From the sequence record MK327931.1: DNA of 64,000 nucleotides. One strand, given 5' to 3'. The notes below the pieces were generated by a model. It saw only the letters and a list, made by a program, of their open reading frames with translations, had not been told where the DNA came from and did no database searches. Both the position numbers and the translations under genes were made by a program. Positions 49,086-61,534 of this stretch are shown here, piece by piece. The first letter of the stretch is position 1; every line of letters starts with the position of its first letter. The DNA comes from Escherichia phage vB_EcoM_G17.

Positions 49086-49490
49086 TTAGATAACCTGGCG
49101 GCGTTTACTGAATACTGTTACACGATTACCCTTACGGTCGTGTCGGATCTCTTTCTGGTTGCGAATCAGTTCACTTGGACGCTTAAGGTTTGCCAGGTGA
49201 TCCGCGTGAGTCCATGCGGTGTGGTTTACCTGTACTTTGATATCAGAATCAGCGATAAACTCATCTTGTGCGTCAAGTATTGCCGCCAGCATATCCGCTC
49301 GTTTTAGTTCTGCTGCTGTCAGTACTGGCTCAGGTGAATTCACAATATCAGAGATTTCTTTGAACTGTACGGCCCAGCGTTGACCTTTCGGTGCATCTTT
49401 GCCCATGTCTTTAAATGCTGCTCCTTCCTCGCGTGCAACAATACGGGCAGCTTCACGGGTAGCGTAGAATTTAGTAATCATGGTATACAT
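49086..49490 (-). CDS. hypothetical protein (paralog of 61268..61534)
   Basis: ORF track; shared motifs KFYATREAAR and DRKGNRVTV with 61268..61534; alternative start 9 nt downstream possible. Confidence 0.6.
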   Translation of the reverse strand: MYTMITKFYATREAARIVAREEGAAFKDMGKDAPKGQRWAVQFKEISDIVNSPEPVLTAAELKRADMLAAILDAQDEFIADSDIKVQVNHTAWTHADHLANLKRPSELIRNQKEIRHDRKGNRVTVFSKRRQVI

Positions 49491-49525
49491 CCTATTAGTT
49501 GAGATAGTACTACAAGTTAGAGTCT

Positions 49526-49554
49526 ATTATAAAGTACTATCTGGGCAATGTCAA
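49526..49554 (-). promoter_or_regulatory. sigma70-like promoter (no hairpin)
   Basis: -35 TTGACA 49549-49554, 17-bp spacer, -10 TATAAT 49526-49531. Confidence 0.55.
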
Positions 49555-49576
49555 ATAGTACTTTAAATGGATTCTA

Positions 49577-49900
49577 TTACATGTCTTTCTTACGTTTTAC
49601 ATCGTAGTATCGAACTGTAATTTCTTTGTTGATCTCTTCCTCGATGCGGTGAATAACTTTTTCTTTCGGGTTGAAACCTATAACGGTTTCTTTAATGATC
49701 TCCAAGCCCGTGTATTCGCCTTGTGTACCGTAACCGTATGTAAAGGTTTCGTGTCCCAGGTCTTCCCAGCGGTCGCCAATTAACGCTGACACGTAGCAAG
49801 AGTGGTAAGTATTGCCGTTCCGATCAGTCCAGCGATTAACTTTAATGTCAAAGGAGGTTACAATTTTCAGTTCTACTTTCTGGGTAAGGATCATAGCCAT
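49577..49900 (-). CDS. hypothetical protein (paralog of 55695..56018)
   Basis: ORF track; shared motif RWTDxxGNTYHSC and C-terminal KRKKD. Confidence 0.65.
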   Translation of the reverse strand: MAMILTQKVELKIVTSFDIKVNRWTDRNGNTYHSCYVSALIGDRWEDLGHETFTYGYGTQGEYTGLEIIKETVIGFNPKEKVIHRIEEEINKEITVRYYDVKRKKDM

Positions 49901-49923
49901 TTTTATTTCTCTCTCTTTGTTAG

Positions 49924-49984
49924 GAGGGGAACCATTCCCCTCGCTTGATGTAAACTATTATACAGTACTAAGATACTTTGTCAA
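49924..49984 (-). promoter_or_regulatory. sigma70-like promoter + leader hairpin cassette
   Basis: -35 TTGACA 49979-49984, 16-bp spacer, -10 TATAAT 49957-49962, hairpin GAGGGGAA-CCA-TTCCCCTC 49924-49942. Confidence 0.65.
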
Positions 49985-49987
49985 TAC

Positions 49988-50170
49988 TTATTTTTTGGAA
50001 AGTTTACGCATTAATTCTACGCTTTCTTGTGAACGTTTTGCTACCTGGCAAGCTGTATGGGCAGTAAACATTTTTGTATAGTCTGACGCTTTGCCACCAA
50101 ACCGAGCGGCACGTTCACGGGCACTTGGAACTAATACTATTTCTTTCTTGCAGATAGTGCACTTAGCCAT
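49988..50170 (-). CDS. hypothetical Cys-containing small protein
   Basis: ORF track 49988..50215 trimmed to ATG (MAKCTICKK); extension ran through hairpin. Confidence 0.5.
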   Translation of the reverse strand: MAKCTICKKEIVLVPSARERAARFGGKASDYTKMFTAHTACQVAKRSQESVELMRKLSKK

Positions 50171-50193
50171 TTTTATTTCTCTCTCTTTGTTAG

Positions 50194-50255
50194 GAGGGGA
50201 ACCGTTTCCCCTCACTTGATGTAAACTATTATACAGTACTAAGATACTTTATCAA
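50194..50255 (-). promoter_or_regulatory. sigma70-like promoter + leader hairpin cassette
   Basis: -35 TTGATA 50250-50255, 16-bp spacer, -10 TATAAT 50228-50233, hairpin 50194-50213; about 88-bp near-identical direct repeat of 49901-49987. Confidence 0.55.
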
Positions 50256-50258
50256 TAC

Positions 50259-50534
50259 TTAAGTATTGTAAATGTCGTGAATAGTGATAAAGTTTTTACG
50301 ACCGTAAACCTGCAAATCAATATCAATGTAGTGCTTATCTAGTACATCCTCGACGCTTAACGCGGTGTCGTGGATATCTTCGTAGAATTGAGGATCTACA
50401 ATCTTGCTTAAGTCATCCGGCGTTAACTTATCGTTAAGCCATTGAACCGCCTGGATATCTGCTTCACGTTTCCAGTCTTCCAGGTTAGTAGTCAGTACTT
50501 GTTCGATTTCGTTAGCTGTCAGTAGAATCCGCAT
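50259..50534 (-). CDS. hypothetical protein
   Basis: ORF track. Confidence 0.65.
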   Translation of the reverse strand: MRILLTANEIEQVLTTNLEDWKREADIQAVQWLNDKLTPDDLSKIVDPQFYEDIHDTALSVEDVLDKHYIDIDLQVYGRKNFITIHDIYNT

Positions 50535-50567
50535 TTTTATGTTTCCTTATCAGTGGTTGATGTAAGT

Positions 50568-50595
50568 ATTATACTCGTTTACTTTCTATTGTCAA
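50568..50595 (-). promoter_or_regulatory. sigma70-like promoter (degenerate hairpin)
   Basis: -35 TTGACA 50590-50595, 16-bp spacer, -10 TATAAT 50568-50573. Confidence 0.55.
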
Positions 50596-50680
50596 ACTAT
50601 TTTATCAGGGGAGTTTTTCGTATGTCTTACTCCTGGACTACTTAACAGGGTTACTTATTTCGTTCCCCGTCCTGATGTAA
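50596..50680 (-). other. conserved structured leader element, copy 1
   Basis: About 85 nt without ORF between two tandem promoters; ends can pair (ATCAGGacGGGGA with TCCCCTGAT); homologous to 60584-60672 and 57534-57656. Confidence 0.4.
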
Positions 50681-50683
50681 AAC

Positions 50684-59899: not shown

Positions 59900-59911
59900 G
59901 TACTTTTTAAA

Positions 59912-60523
59912 TTAATATGCGATTGATTCTACTACGTCATCAATAACATTGAATTGATATTCGTTACCCTCAATCAGTGCCGTAATGTTTTCAGTAGTGA
60001 ATTGATCCTCATATGCATTCTCTAAATCACGGTACAACTTGCGGGATAATTCACGAATAGTTTCAGTGAGTAGTTCCTCAAGCTCATTAACTAACGTTTC
60101 TTGTTTTGCGGTTAAATCAGTGTAAGCCGATTCAATGTACCCGCTTACAGTATTCTCATGCGAGTAGTGGGAGTGAGAACGCTTTACACTCATCGCCAAA
60201 TCATCTTCATTCAGCAGGTGACGGATTGAGCGATACTTAGTTAATGCTCTTACCTTGCGTAAAAACTTCACTGCGTCAACGTGGTCAGTACTGATTGATG
60301 CACCGTCACCCTGGGACCAAAAACCACTGAATTGTATTTCAGCTTCATTAATGCCATATTCCGGTAGTACTGTTTCTTTATAGTATTCAATTTCACTTTC
60401 AGAAAAATAATTGTCGTTTGAGTTTTTTTCACGTTCCCGAACCAGTTCGATAGCTGACGTTTTTTGTTCTGCGTTCAATTCAGAAAAATCCATAACGAAA
60501 GTAGTAGTAGTGATAGTTTTCAT
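59912..60523 (-). CDS. hypothetical protein
   Basis: ORF track; 203 aa; contains SGFWSQGDGAS; GAGGG SD. Confidence 0.7.
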   Translation of the reverse strand: MKTITTTTFVMDFSELNAEQKTSAIELVREREKNSNDNYFSESEIEYYKETVLPEYGINEAEIQFSGFWSQGDGASISTDHVDAVKFLRKVRALTKYRSIRHLLNEDDLAMSVKRSHSHYSHENTVSGYIESAYTDLTAKQETLVNELEELLTETIRELSRKLYRDLENAYEDQFTTENITALIEGNEYQFNVIDDVVESIAY

Positions 60524-60555
60524 TTTGTAACCCTCATTCAGTAGTTGATGTAAGT

Positions 60556-60583
60556 ATTATACGCTTTTAAAAACATTTGTCAA
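60556..60583 (-). promoter_or_regulatory. sigma70-like promoter
   Basis: -35 TTGACA 60578-60583, 16-bp spacer, -10 TATAAT 60556-60561. Confidence 0.55.
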
Positions 60584-60672
60584 ACTATTTTATCAGGGGA
60601 GTTTTTCGTGTGCCTTACTCCTGGGCTACTTAACGGGAAGTTACTTATTTCGTTCCCCGTCCTGATGTAAAA
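60584..60672 (-). other. conserved structured leader element, copy 2
   Basis: Homologous to 50596-50680, differing at a handful of positions; no ORF. Confidence 0.4.
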
Positions 60673-60673
60673 C

Positions 60674-60701
60674 ATTATACGCCTTTAAACATAGTTTGCA
60701 A
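60674..60701 (-). promoter_or_regulatory. sigma70-like promoter
   Basis: -35 TTGCAA 60696-60701, 16-bp spacer, -10 TATAAT 60674-60679. Confidence 0.5.
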
Positions 60702-60746
60702 GTACTTTTTAAAAATAGTTTTCAGTACTGAATATTTAAAAAAGTA

Positions 60747-60775
60747 TTGACAGCATTATCAAGTACTGGCATAAT
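60747..60775 (+). promoter_or_regulatory. plus-strand sigma70-like promoter
   Basis: -35 TTGACA 60747-60752, 17-bp spacer, -10 CATAAT 60770-60775; transcript would begin with AGCTAACCCACCGGGTGCAC motif. Confidence 0.45.
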
Positions 60776-60890
60776 ATACCCCATGACAACAGCTAACCCA
60801 CCGGGTGCACAATTGTAACTATACTAAACTACTTTTTCTATAGATACACTCCCGCACCCTATGGGCTACGGCTTATCTGCCAATGAATAC

Positions 60891-60919
60891 ATTATGCCAG
60901 TACTGACAAAATAAGTCAA
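60891..60919 (-). promoter_or_regulatory. minus-strand promoter convergent with plus promoter at 60747-60775
   Basis: -35 TTGACT 60914-60919, 17-bp spacer, -10 CATAAT 60891-60896. Confidence 0.4.
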
Positions 60920-60949
60920 TACCGGCAATTGTAAAGATTTGTAAACTGC

Positions 60950-61180
60950 TTATACTGCAATCGCGTCCAGGCTATAATAATAATAAGTGCCGTATTGGTG
61001 TACTTTATTACCTTTTATTTCAGTACTGAATGAATCCGAACGGTTTGCATATGATGTTAATTTAAAGTACTTTGATTTGCTGATACGTTGCCATACACCG
61101 CAGATCCGCTGTAAGTAAGTAGTTTTATTCGTGGTAGTATCTTTTACAGTTTTAACTTCAGTCATATACATATTAGTCAT
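60950..61180 (-). CDS. hypothetical protein
   Basis: ORF track; GGAG SD. Confidence 0.6.
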   Translation of the reverse strand: MTNMYMTEVKTVKDTTTNKTTYLQRICGVWQRISKSKYFKLTSYANRSDSFSTEIKGNKVHQYGTYYYYSLDAIAV

Positions 61181-61201
61181 TTTTATTACTCCAGGTTATA
61201 G

Positions 61202-61260
61202 GCGGGAAGAGTTCCCGCTCTCGATGTAAAACATTATACGCCATTAAACATAGTTTGCAA
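61202..61260 (-). promoter_or_regulatory. sigma70-like promoter + leader hairpin cassette
   Basis: -35 TTGCAA 61255-61260, 16-bp spacer, -10 TATAAT 61233-61238, hairpin GCGGGAA-GAG-TTCCCGC 61202-61218. Confidence 0.6.
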
Positions 61261-61267
61261 GTACTTT

Positions 61268-61534
61268 TTATTCAAGTACTGCAATCTTTTTAGTACGGTA
61301 CACGGTCACGCGGTTGCCCTTTCGGTCGAGCTTTATTTCTACCACTCGACGCGATACACTATCAGGACTTTTCAACGCCGCTAACCAGTACTGTAATGAT
61401 CTGGCGGTACTACGCTTTATAATGGCCCAACGTTTACCACGTTCCGATTGTACGCCCATATCTTTAAACGTTGCCCCGTCCTGGCGTGCGGCGATCCGAG
61501 CTTGTTCACGCGTCGCAAAATACTTAATATTCAT
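61268..61534 (-). CDS. hypothetical protein (paralog of 49086..49490)
   Basis: ORF track 61268..61570 trimmed to ATG (MNIKYFATREQAR) with AAGGG SD. Confidence 0.6.
   Translation of the reverse strand: MNIKYFATREQARIAARQDGATFKDMGVQSERGKRWAIIKRSTARSLQYWLAALKSPDSVSRRVVEIKLDRKGNRVTVYRTKKIAVLE

Follow-up and report, generated by a model that had tools for sequence, protein, structure and literature searches.

Two small early-gene families with probably ancient copies in a region of probable cassette recombination in a jumbo coliphage

We identified two families of small genes, here called A and B, each with two members in the window (the whole 64,000-nucleotide stretch analyzed). They are organized as a B-to-A gene pair (B1 and A1) and, for each family, a further copy that stands alone (B2 and A2). 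Judged from their divergence and shared positions, the copies appear to be ancient homologs that were fixed in place before the 121Q-like phages diverged. Overall, the arrangement is probably explained by ancient copies of two early-gene families lying within a cassette-recombining, hyperplastic region of a phage of the 121Q/PBECO4/Sharanji type. The window is ~99.4% identical to Sharanji, an Asteriusvirus jumbo coliphage, and all genes in the region are annotated as hypothetical proteins. The features discussed are listed in Table 1.

Table 1. Genes and regulatory elements of families A and B and of the neighboring cassettes
Feature	Position	Strand	Description	Basis
A1	49086..49481	-	Family A, long form, 131 aa; Sharanji gp067	Homology, phrog_8127
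A2	61268..61534	-	Family A, short form, 88 aa; Sharanji gp099	Homology, phrog_8127
B1	49577..49900	-	Family B, 107 aa; Sharanji gp068; directly upstream of A1	Homology, phrog_6246
B2	55695..56018	-	Family B, 107 aa; Sharanji gp087	Homology, phrog_6246
Terminator	49045..49063	-	Intrinsic; ends the B1-A1 unit; GGCGGGATCAGTTCCCGCC then TTTTTT	
A1 promoter block	49524..49582	-	Perfect TTGACA-17-TATAAT at 49554-49526; no hairpin	
A2 upstream block	61570..61625	-	28-nt and 18-nt stretches and inverted repeat as at A1; weak -35	
B1 promoter and leader-hairpin cassette	49907..49994	-	TTGACA-16-TATAAT (49984-49957), hairpin, Shine-Dalgarno (SD), ATG	
B2 promoter	56060..56088	-	TTGACA-17-CATAAT, TG extension, AGTACT flanks; no hairpin	
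gp069 indel unit	49988..50265	-	60-aa Cys-rich ORF (49988-50170) with its own cassette (50178-50265)	
Second clean cassette indel	46563..47134	-	Gene 46647-47054 with 78-nt promoter-hairpin repeats	

Two families of homologous genes

An all-against-all BLASTP comparison of the 355 ORFs in the window returned the A pair and the B pair as exclusive reciprocal matches, with no third member of either family in the window. A1 and A2 are 35% identical (E 8e-19) and B1 and B2 are 38% identical without a gap over all 107 residues (E 6e-28), both well past chance. Pairwise alignment thus bears out both pairs proposed in an earlier, sequence-only reading of this DNA. All four proteins match their PHROG entries over the full length: phrog_8127 is matched by A1 (E 3.7e-35, residues 4-134) and A2 (E 2.1e-26, residues 1-87), and phrog_6246 by B1 (E 3.8e-35) and B2 (E 6e-41), both over residues 1-107.

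The motifs named in that reading were largely recovered. RWTDxxGNTYHSC and a C-terminal KRKKD(M/L) occur in both B proteins, and DRKGNRVTV occurs in both A proteins; the proposed KFYATRE[AQ]AR does not hold literally, as A1 has KFYATREAAR where A2 has KYFATREQAR, with the order of F and Y reversed. The A1 coordinates had been given as 49086..49490, and the start needs correction: it is the ATG at 49481 (MITKF...), where all homologs begin and which is the only ATG that fits the Shine-Dalgarno spacing.

A1 consists of an N-terminal domain (KF.ATRE.AR..AR..G..F.DMG...G.RWAV), a variable helical linker and a C-terminal DRKGN.VTV hairpin (structure model: pLDDT 73, pTM 0.32). The gene found at the A2 locus in phage EJP2 encodes a protein of 125 aa that resembles A1 in its N-terminus and linker and A2 in its C-terminus. 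We infer from such comparisons that A2 is a long-form A gene whose linker was deleted, the long form being still present at this locus in EJP2.

We also considered whether the similarities might reflect chance, low complexity or faulty ORF calling. This is refuted by the E values (8e-19 and 6e-28), the shared PHROGs, the confident fold predicted for B and the conservation of both families, as annotated protein-coding genes, in dozens of phage genomes.

Linkage and conserved order of the genes

B1 and A1 are immediate neighbors on the same strand. Because they form an adjacent module, the A and B pairs are not independent of each other. The wide spacing of the copies described earlier was confirmed, with B2 and A2 lying further up the same strand from the pair, at 5.8 kb (~19 genes) for B and 11.8 kb (~33 genes) for A. 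The B1-A1 adjacency was absent from the earlier description.

The order A2...B2...B1-A1 is collinear in 121Q, phAPEC6, JP4, WPEC5 and UE-S1, and the shared positions of the four genes in these phages suggest that the arrangement predates the radiation of the group. B2, B1 and A1 are present in PBECO4, whose sequence at this locus ends before the A2 position. We found B1 next to A1 in every Asteriusvirus record among the matches listed in both tblastn searches. Across the genus, each copy shares 85-100% identity with its orthologs (93-100% for B1 within Asteriusvirus), whereas the two copies within one genome are less than 50% identical.

The adjacency extends to more distant phages. EJP2 retains a B-A pair at the B1-A1 locus although both of its genes are very divergent, and A-like and B-like genes are adjacent in Av-05, an rV5-like phage outside Asteriusvirus; metagenome contig L012 is a weak further case. 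The A homologs of RaK2, GAP32, fHe-Yen9-04, Munch and Hallingskeid have no B-like gene within ~3 kb. Av-05 has several of the early genes in common with Asteriusvirus, suggesting a common gene pool.

Promoters and leader hairpins

The gene strand carries 46 consensus-like promoter sites in 20 kb; over 17 kb, nine are perfect (12/12) and more than 20 others score 10-11/12. A-tracts precede these promoters, and an SD and ATG follow within ~60 nt. Almost all of the small genes are self-contained cassettes comprising, in order, an A-tract, the -35 and -10 elements, a GC-rich leader hairpin, an SD and the ORF. The hairpin's offset is constant in 24-25 of 27 cassettes, its folding energies run from -10 to -18 kcal/mol, and compensatory changes were found in 5 of 7 pairs. 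It begins ~12 nt downstream of the -10, before the SD, and has no U-tract; this position between promoter and SD predicts that it should belong to the 5' leader of the mRNA. Canonical terminators, such as the one at 49045-49063, stand apart from the leader hairpins.

B1 is preceded by such a cassette, with hairpin GAGGGGAA...TTCCCCTC, and B2 is not; the similarity of their promoters is generic for the region. A1 and B1 are each served by a perfect sigma-70 consensus promoter of their own. The inverted repeat AAAGTACTAT / ATAGTACTTT flanks the A1 promoter. The exact 28-nt and 18-nt stretches upstream of A1 occur elsewhere in the 64 kb only at A2, and the block common to both genes extends as far as the stop codon of the gene before it; the A1 block retains the end of B1 and the A2 block retains the end of an upstream gene, ATGTAATAG. 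This unique block suggests that each copy kept its own promoter and that regulatory DNA was part of the duplicated unit. For neither family did we find a link between the original duplication and a cassette event.

Gain, loss and replacement of cassettes

As the region evolves, cassettes consisting of a single gene and its promoter are gained, lost and replaced. The gene for gp069, directly upstream of B1, is absent from 121Q, phAPEC6 and UE-S1, and the B1 cassette forms one of the two direct repeats on either side of it. Similarly, the gene at 46647-47054 is missing from 121Q, phAPEC6, WPEC5 and PBECO4, and is flanked by repeats (46563-46640 and 47057-47134) that are 94% identical. The direct repeats around these two genes are nearly identical, measure 78 to ~100 nt and contain the promoter, hairpin and SD. 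In relatives without one of the genes the absence is precise, and a single hybrid cassette is kept.

Homology breakpoints also concentrate in cassettes. Cassette windows make up 26% of the sequence and hold 23 of 36 breakpoint clusters (p = 1.7e-6), and only 6 of 36 lie deep inside genes, versus 60% expected. When only intergenic positions are counted, 23 of 30 clusters fall in cassettes against 61% expected, a marginal enrichment (p = 0.054), so selection against breaking genes could give the same pattern.

Natural replacement of an allele is clearly seen at the B2 locus. In phAPEC6 and UE-S1 it holds B3, a lineage only 33% identical to B2, and the coding sequence alone was exchanged between nearly identical flanking genes (98-99% at the protein level). 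This replacement makes family B a candidate for a function in host interaction or counter-defense.

Origin of the second copies

The copies within one genome are not each other's closest relatives. Over aligned columns, A1 is 45-49% identical to A2 and 47-50% identical to its RaK2 homolog, and is thus no closer to the former. B2 is 71% identical to metagenomic protein P0003 and 52% to P0004 and P0005, and B1 is 42-45% identical to P0052, P0055 and P0003-P0005, so that B1, B2 and B3 (29-38% mutual identity) are each nearer to metagenomic homologs than to one another. These identities exclude a recent duplication; an ancient one is possible and, given the metagenomic homologs, independent acquisition is equally so. 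We propose that PeSL-like homologous recombination between the repeated regulatory elements would have inserted genes between the copies or, alternatively, placed the copies ectopically, and that it may keep trading alleles with other phages.

The second copies might instead be divergent homologs that were acquired independently, by horizontal transfer, through recombination at conserved flanks. The relationships just described, the visible B2-to-B3 replacement between flanks of ~98% identity and the gene pool held in common with Av-05 all agree with this idea. However, the upstream block unique to A1 and A2 is more easily obtained if a copy was made within one genome, or if gene conversion acted later, than if both genes were imported, and the intermediate EJP2 gene at the A2 locus suggests a joint history inside the lineage; we consider independent acquisition possible, rather than probable. 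An ancient tandem duplication of the B-A unit, followed by passive separation through insertions and by partner loss, would give the cassettes no special part. The large and clear tandem paralog arrays at 37-43 kb and 23-28 kb of the window show that tandem duplication does operate in this genome, the B-A adjacency has held even in the divergent EJP2, and the gene end ATGTAATAG before A2 would fit a former B gene there. Yet no genome examined has a tandem intermediate, and B2 and A2 are 5.2 kb apart in reversed order, A2 preceding B2 in the direction of transcription. We regard this origin as doubtful; moreover, the directly visible insertions have cassettes at their boundaries, and for the separation step the proposal merges with the one we prefer, ancient copies in a cassette-recombining region.

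The sequence-only reading had attributed the separated pairs to cassette-mediated duplication and shuffling rather than simple tandem duplication. Its cassettes are well founded, since the visible insertions have cassette boundaries, but a tandem origin of great age, with later separation, would also be compatible with what we see. Synteny with related phages, the check suggested there, revealed cassette indels near B1 but placed the A and B copies at the same positions in the 121Q-like genomes. Recent and ongoing shuffling of the A and B genes themselves is thus highly improbable: the indel at gp069, beside B1, speaks for it, but the copies are only 35-38% identical in amino-acid sequence and far less similar within a genome than each is to its orthologs across the genus. 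Old divergence together with fixed syntenic positions argues that these genes are not being shuffled.

Predicted structure and function

Family B belongs to a superfamily of at least 1,297 representatives or clusters (E <= 1e-3) with the conserved motifs RW.D..GNTYH, YGYG and RKKDL. Its domain also occurs as a C-terminal fusion in proteins of 200-720 aa. The superfamily matches no model in the libraries searched. Neither family has a match in Pfam, NCBIfam or PADLOC, sequence and fold searches of the PDB gave none at E <= 0.001, and phrog_8127 and phrog_6246 carry no assigned function.

The structure model of B is a confident fold (pLDDT 86.6, pTM 0.77), a compact alpha/beta domain with the order beta-beta-beta-alpha-(beta)-alpha-beta. 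Structurally related proteins occur in phages Salva and Av-05 (TM scores up to 0.72-0.76). The top Foldseek matches in the PDB and BFVD are weak (E 0.005-0.5, TM 0.3-0.4) and mostly RNase H-like domains; the best PDB fold match (E 0.02, TM 0.3-0.4) is not significant. The modeled strand order resembles that of RNase H-like nucleases (terminase nuclease domain, PIWI, EndoV and RNase H), and no catalytic D-E-D-D motif could be assigned in the ~95-residue domain. We take this modeled resemblance as a lead and not as a classification. B could possibly bind or process nucleic acid, and A may be its functional partner. We speculate, with low confidence, that both are early-expressed host-takeover or counter-defense proteins under diversifying selection.

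Significance

Taken together, the A and B copies and the cassettes represent ordinary phage evolution with an unusual cassette layout. They are of little importance in themselves, as large lytic phages can be expected to carry small early paralogs and to exchange modules at repeated promoters, and PHROGs already lists both families. Family B nevertheless offers a way into a large uncharacterized superfamily, for which a structure or a knockout could be worthwhile.

A more far-reaching interpretation, which we consider unlikely, is that A and B form a conserved two-gene module, that B founds a large superfamily, that its divergent alleles reflect diversifying selection and that the cassettes are a second version of the PeSL type. 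If so, the module would span Asteriusvirus, the divergent EJP2 pair and the unrelated Av-05. B would be the founding example of a very large phage superfamily (~95 residues, at least 1,297 clusters; invariant RW.D..GNTYH and YGYG, RKKDL at the C-terminus, RNase H-like strand order) whose domain in some cases ends a large multi-domain protein. The keeping of B1, B2 or B3 in one genome would imply diversifying selection on an early counter-defense or host-takeover function, and the promoter and leader-hairpin cassettes would be PeSL-type mobile regulatory cassettes that evolved independently in a different phage lineage.

Comparison with known systems

The paper on CBB, a RaK2-like jumbo phage, describes RpoD-like early promoters with UP elements and notes paralogous ORFs (PMC5259590), and the GAP32 genome record annotates the same kind of promoter. 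As in our window, these promoters have the form TTGACA-N-TATAAT behind A-rich, UP-like tracts and cluster among short hypothetical ORFs beside or within the long terminal repeat. The term 'stem-loop' does not appear in the CBB paper (PMC5259590), whose available sections give no account of AGTACT motifs, cassette-bounded indels or families A and B. The accessible portions of the Sharanji, fEgEco12 and phAPEC6 papers contain no promoter or paralog analysis.

A close parallel is with promoter-early stem-loop (PeSL) cassettes, described for T4-type phages (Arbiol et al. 2010, PMC2839356; Comeau et al. 2014, PMC4122927). The PeSL stem-loop is reported to lie just upstream of the promoter and to terminate transcription of the preceding gene (PMC4122927; PMC2839356). 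In contrast, the hairpin here follows the -10 by ~12 nt, before the SD and without a U-tract, so that the element is built differently: its hairpin is predicted to lie in the mRNA leader, with no upstream terminator role, and no stem-loop acting as a terminator was found upstream of the promoter. PeSL recombination between adjacent copies reportedly yields excised mini-circles. The host genome also differs, being that of an Asteriusvirus jumbo phage and not of the T4 type.

The two systems are otherwise alike in several respects. Both have highly similar composite elements with near-consensus sigma-70 early promoters and a GGGG...CCCC stem-loop; in our window the promoters have AT-rich upstream DNA and are followed by an SD and the start of a small ORF. 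Both repeat these elements between small ORFs without known function in a hyperplastic early region, and here the boundaries of indels and replacements tend to fall in the elements (p = 1.7e-6 over the whole sequence, but p = 0.054 for intergenic positions only). In both, single genes flanked by adjacent copies vary in presence among close relatives, and the junction falls within the repeat. PeSL-like shuffling, so far described for T4-type phages, seems also to be at work in the 350-kb Asteriusvirus jumbo phages.

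Two ancient gene pairs in a cluster of small genes

Positions 49000-62000 of the window are ~99.4% identical to Escherichia phage Sharanji (OR545507.1), a 350-kb Asteriusvirus jumbo phage of the 121Q/PBECO4 group. All genes of the region lie on the minus strand and are collinear with Sharanji gp053-gp102, every one of which is annotated as a hypothetical protein.

A sequence-only reading had noticed two dispersed pairs of similar genes here, designated family A (copies A1 and A2) and family B (B1 and B2). Both resemblances are real. BLASTP aligned A1 with A2 at 35% identity (E 8e-19) with a 45-residue gap, and B1 with B2 at 38% identity across all 107 residues, gap-free (E 6e-28). 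The start of A1 should be moved from 49490 to 49481. Both A copies fall in phrog_8127 and both B copies in phrog_6246, two PHROGs of unknown function; Pfam, NCBIfam and PADLOC returned nothing for either family, and PDB sequence profiles gave nothing at E <= 0.001, the best match being a designed helical repeat protein at E 0.003. An all-against-all comparison of the 355 ORFs in the window detected no third member of either family, and in Sharanji each family occupies exactly two places.

B1 and A1 are neighbours, a point overlooked in the sequence-only reading. Given this adjacency, their own promoters (perfect 12/12 matches) and an intrinsic terminator after A1, the finding amounts to one B-to-A module, a solo B2 and a solo A2. 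We rejected a duplicated unit enlarged by two small Cys-rich ORFs, gp069 upstream of B1 and the ORF at 56108-56251 upstream of B2, as BLASTP gave no alignment. The latter ORF encodes 47 Cys/His-rich residues (MKTCQCGQKS...CQYHYNL...) and has its own promoter-hairpin cassette and Shine-Dalgarno sequence (SD). Sharanji has no annotation for it, but 121Q does (gene 280), and relatives conserve it at 94-98%; the closest record probably missed a real gene.

Coordinates of the features discussed
Feature	Position	Strand
A1	49086-49481	-
A1 promoter	49554-49526	
Intrinsic terminator after A1	49063-49045	-
B1	49577-49900	-
B1 promoter	49984-49957	
B2	55695-56018	-
A2	61268-61534	-
gp069	49988-50170	
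Gene missing in four relatives	46647-47054	
Cys/His-rich ORF	56108-56251	-
Gene bracketed by terminator-like hairpins	57051-57533	
Terminator-like hairpins	57008-57029, 57744-57765	-
ORF-less modules	44690-44850, 47435-47580, 50536-50849, 53919-54128, 60524-60949	-
Counterpart of Av-05 gp081-like protein	53269-53481	
Counterpart of Av-05 gp097-like protein	59912-60523	
Counterpart of Av-05 gp101-like protein	61953-62318	
Tandem array of ~150-aa paralogs	23000-28300	-
Tandem array of ~70-aa paralogs	37100-43300	-
8-nt-period array	63100-63227	

Synteny comparison with related phages, which the earlier reading had called for, showed 121Q and phAPEC6 to be collinear with the window, gene by gene, in the order A2...B2...B1-A1. 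Profile HMMs placed the A and B genes of JP4, WPEC5 and UE-S1 at matching positions, and the fetched PBECO4 locus contains B2, B1 and A1, its sequence ending short of the A2 position. Orthologs of each copy are 85-100% identical genus-wide; the two copies within one genome are <50% identical. The shared synteny and ortholog identity indicate that the arrangement predates the 121Q-like radiation and that shuffling of the A and B genes is not ongoing.

EJP2, a divergent Asteriusvirus, has an adjacent B-to-A pair at the B1-A1 position that is 38-46% identical to any window copy, among neighbouring genes that are 58-97% identical. At its A2 locus, EJP2 encodes a 125-aa long form with an A1-like N-terminus and linker and a C-terminus (ALKSPDSVSRRVVEIKHDRKGNRVTVY) nearly identical to that of A2. 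On this sequence comparison, A2 of the window is best read as the long-form gene minus its linker, a loss that would account for the gap relative to A1.

Where a relative's record holds both terminal repeats, tblastn located family A and family B genes at four places in that record, and in vB_Ec-M-J the matches fall under a feature annotated ‘Direct Terminal Repeats’. Thus, in those phages the whole cluster lies within the ~21-kb terminal repeat.

Base composition of the small-gene cluster differs from that of the preceding 38 kb: G+C steps from ~30-33% (1-38000) to ~37-40% (42000-64000) near 40-44 kb, and AT skew turns strongly negative at 38-42 kb. Two clearly tandem paralog arrays, each with many pairwise BLASTP matches, are far larger expansions than the A and B pairs; the array at 37.1-43.3 kb comprises ~25-30 consecutive ORFs. 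An 8-nt-period array (TCTAGCCG / TTTAGCCG / TCCAAACG ...) lies in an ORF-poor stretch (~62400-64000), with no convincing ORFs around it, and might be an array of protein-binding sites, an origin, or a site connected with packaging or the terminus. No matches came from Rfam (gathering thresholds) or from tRNA scans across the window.

Promoter-hairpin cassettes

A ~60-100-nt repeat, here termed the cassette, separates nearly all of the small genes; the largest repeat family has 24 copies at 44-64 kb. On the gene strand it runs from an A-tract through (GTAC)TTGCAA or TTGACA, 16-17 nt, TATAAT, a conserved GTTTTACATC and a GC-rich hairpin (such as GGGGAGAAATGGTTCTCCCC) to an SD and ATG. Nine perfect consensus promoters occur on the gene strand within 17 kb. 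Of 27 cassettes, 24-25 form the hairpin at a constant offset (folding energies -10 to -18 kcal/mol), and its stems vary among copies by compensatory changes, both sides being altered in 5 of 7 consensus pairs.

A second promoter class, used by A1, A2 and B2, is without the hairpin and has AGTACT-containing inverted repeats around -35. We rejected the inverted repeat AAAGTACTAT/ATAGTACTTT as a family-A-specific operator for autoregulation. The arrangement also occurs at promoters of other genes, such as B2, and is missing upstream of the A homologs of RaK2, Av-05, GAP32 and Munch and of the adjacent copy in EJP2.

The AGTACT palindrome is very strongly over-represented throughout the window, most of all at 43-64 kb (132 versus ~7 expected), but also at 1-20 kb (62 versus 6.7) and 20-43 kb (57 versus 7.6). 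In promoters it lies both at the upstream edge of -35 (AAGTACTTGCAA) and just before -10 (CAGTACTGTATAAT), or in the inverted repeats around -35, and may be bound by a phage or host factor. Five intergenic modules without ORFs each contain a TTGACT-17-TATTAT promoter inside a 12-bp hairpin (AAAGGGATTGACTCCGGTCAGTCCCTTT), after which come a conserved GCCCACAGGGTGC hairpin and a standard cassette. The copies at 50.5 and 60.5 kb have ~100 extra conserved nt and a long-range GGGGAAC...CTCCCC stem. These modules, which have no Rfam match at gathering thresholds, are candidate small non-coding RNAs. Elsewhere, the direct-repeat flanks of one gene are terminators rather than promoters, being identical terminator-like hairpins (AGCCCACCTTAAACAGTGGGCT then TTTTTTG).

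Gene gain, loss and replacement at cassettes

We chained blastn matches between positions 46000-62600 and six relatives. The gene at 46647-47054 is flanked by 78-nt cassette repeats that are 94% identical; it is missing in 121Q, phAPEC6, WPEC5 and PBECO4, where a single cassette aligns to both flanks. Similarly, gp069, directly upstream of B1 and between ~100-nt repeats, is missing in 121Q, phAPEC6 and UE-S1. These three phages have one cassette there, which links the upstream flank of the gp069 cassette with the start codon of B1. The block left unmatched in phAPEC6 and UE-S1, 55720-56042, corresponds exactly to the coding sequence of B2. Its place is taken by B3, a family B protein of 114 aa with 33% identity to B2 and ~30% to B1, between genes whose products are 98-99% identical.

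Breakpoint clusters fell in cassette windows in 23 of 36 cases, these windows making up 26% of the sequence (p = 1.7e-6), and only 6 of the 36 lay deep inside genes. Against an intergenic-only null the enrichment was marginal (p = 0.054), so we do not claim the cassettes as recombination hot spots; a specific role of the repeats in exchange, as opposed to selection for intact genes, is not proven.

Duplication or acquisition of the A and B copies

The ~60 nt upstream of A1 and A2 are ~85% identical, compared with only ~35% at the amino-acid level for the coding regions. Exact blocks of 28 and 18 nt upstream occur at these two sites only within the 64-kb window, and the common block opens with the final codon and the stop of the gene before. 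Hence the family A unit came with its own promoter; strong constraint or later gene conversion could also have conserved the upstream sequence. The similarity between the B1 and B2 promoters is generic.

B1, B2 and B3 are mutually 29-38% identical. B2 shares 71% identity with the metagenomic homolog P0003 and 52% with P0004/P0005, and B1 shares 42-45% with P0052, P0055 and P0003-P0005. A2 is no nearer to A1 than the RaK2 homolog is. The A and B splits thus date back at least as far as those from other phage lineages, and import, as seen for B3, is as plausible as ancient internal duplication. The earlier proposal of cassette-mediated duplication and shuffling therefore stands in part: evolution by cassettes does take place and can be seen directly next to these genes, but the copies themselves are ancient, positionally stable and, for B1-A1, linked, and may stem from duplication or from import.

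Distribution and possible roles

By tblastn, family B was found only in Asteriusvirus (36 records), and a word-indexed search gave 6 clusters. A profile search of 1.84 billion representatives yielded 1,297 relatives (E <= 1e-3), mostly stand-alone proteins of 90-135 aa, with some forming the C-terminal domain of 200-720-aa proteins. The inspected members share RW.(D)..GNTYH, YGYG and a C-terminal RKKDL, and none of 10 examined relatives had a Pfam match. The AlphaFold model of B2 is confident (pLDDT 86.6, pTM 0.77) and predicts a three-strand meander, then two helices and a closing strand. The structures clearly related to it belong to uncharacterised proteins from phages Salva and Av-05 and from an uncultured virus. 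Weak matches in the PDB and BFVD libraries are mostly RNase H-like domains, a model-based resemblance that we take as a lead only.

Family A occurs in RaK2-like Klebsiella phages and in Erwinia, Yersinia, Cronobacter, Serratia and Salmonella jumbo phages. The family A model is of moderate confidence (pLDDT 73, pTM 0.32) and had no fold match; it shows a beta-alpha-beta-beta unit at the N-terminus, joined through a floppy helical linker to a C-terminal hairpin. A profile search with the family A N-terminal domain gave only proteins of 46-74 aa in which this domain stands alone, and no informative fusions.

An A-like gene adjoins a B-like gene in the unrelated rV5-like phage Av-05, and a short ORF resembling the family A N-terminal domain (E 1.3e-3) precedes a B gene in metagenome contig L012. 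A functional A-B link is suggested but not established. Universal adjacency was rejected, as five other jumbo-phage genera have no B-like gene near A, even with the superfamily profile included. An early role in host takeover or counter-defence would fit these genes: their promoters match the host-type consensus, they lie in or beside the terminal repeat, and one locus holds deeply divergent alleles.

Positions 17000-25000 of Av-05 (121-kb, Vequintavirinae), the neighbourhood of its A-like and B-like genes, also encode proteins resembling gp081, gp097 and gp101 by eye, unscored. The phAPEC6 record notes likewise point to rV5, and there appears to be an early-gene pool common to unrelated coliphages. 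Near family B genes, a further ~130-aa family (...TNYAC.W.H...GGKA.GYGY(D/N)REEAAI...) is encoded at 7129-7530 of the Av-05 sequence L014 (Av05_0040) and 1471-1854 of L012. Its motifs recall the family B GNTYH...YGYG, and it may be a distant relative.

Comparison with known systems

Term searches of the Sharanji, fEgEco12, phAPEC6 and CBB literature and of a jumbo-phage comparative review returned nothing on families A and B or promoter-hairpin cassettes. The mode of evolution is ordinary for large lytic phages; the novelties are modest, namely that a jumbo phage has a PeSL-like system laid out differently, and that a large, undescribed superfamily surrounds family B. In T4-type phages, promoter-early stem-loop elements (PeSLs) combine a sigma-70 promoter with a stem-loop into composite cassettes that mediate modular shuffling and form mini-circles (PMC2839356, PMC4122927). 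The PeSL stem-loop sits immediately ahead of the promoter and serves as a terminator, whereas the hairpin here lies downstream of -10 and is without a U-tract. The cassette lacks the upstream terminator stem-loop that defines a PeSL, but is PeSL-like as a dispersed repeat that brackets genes.
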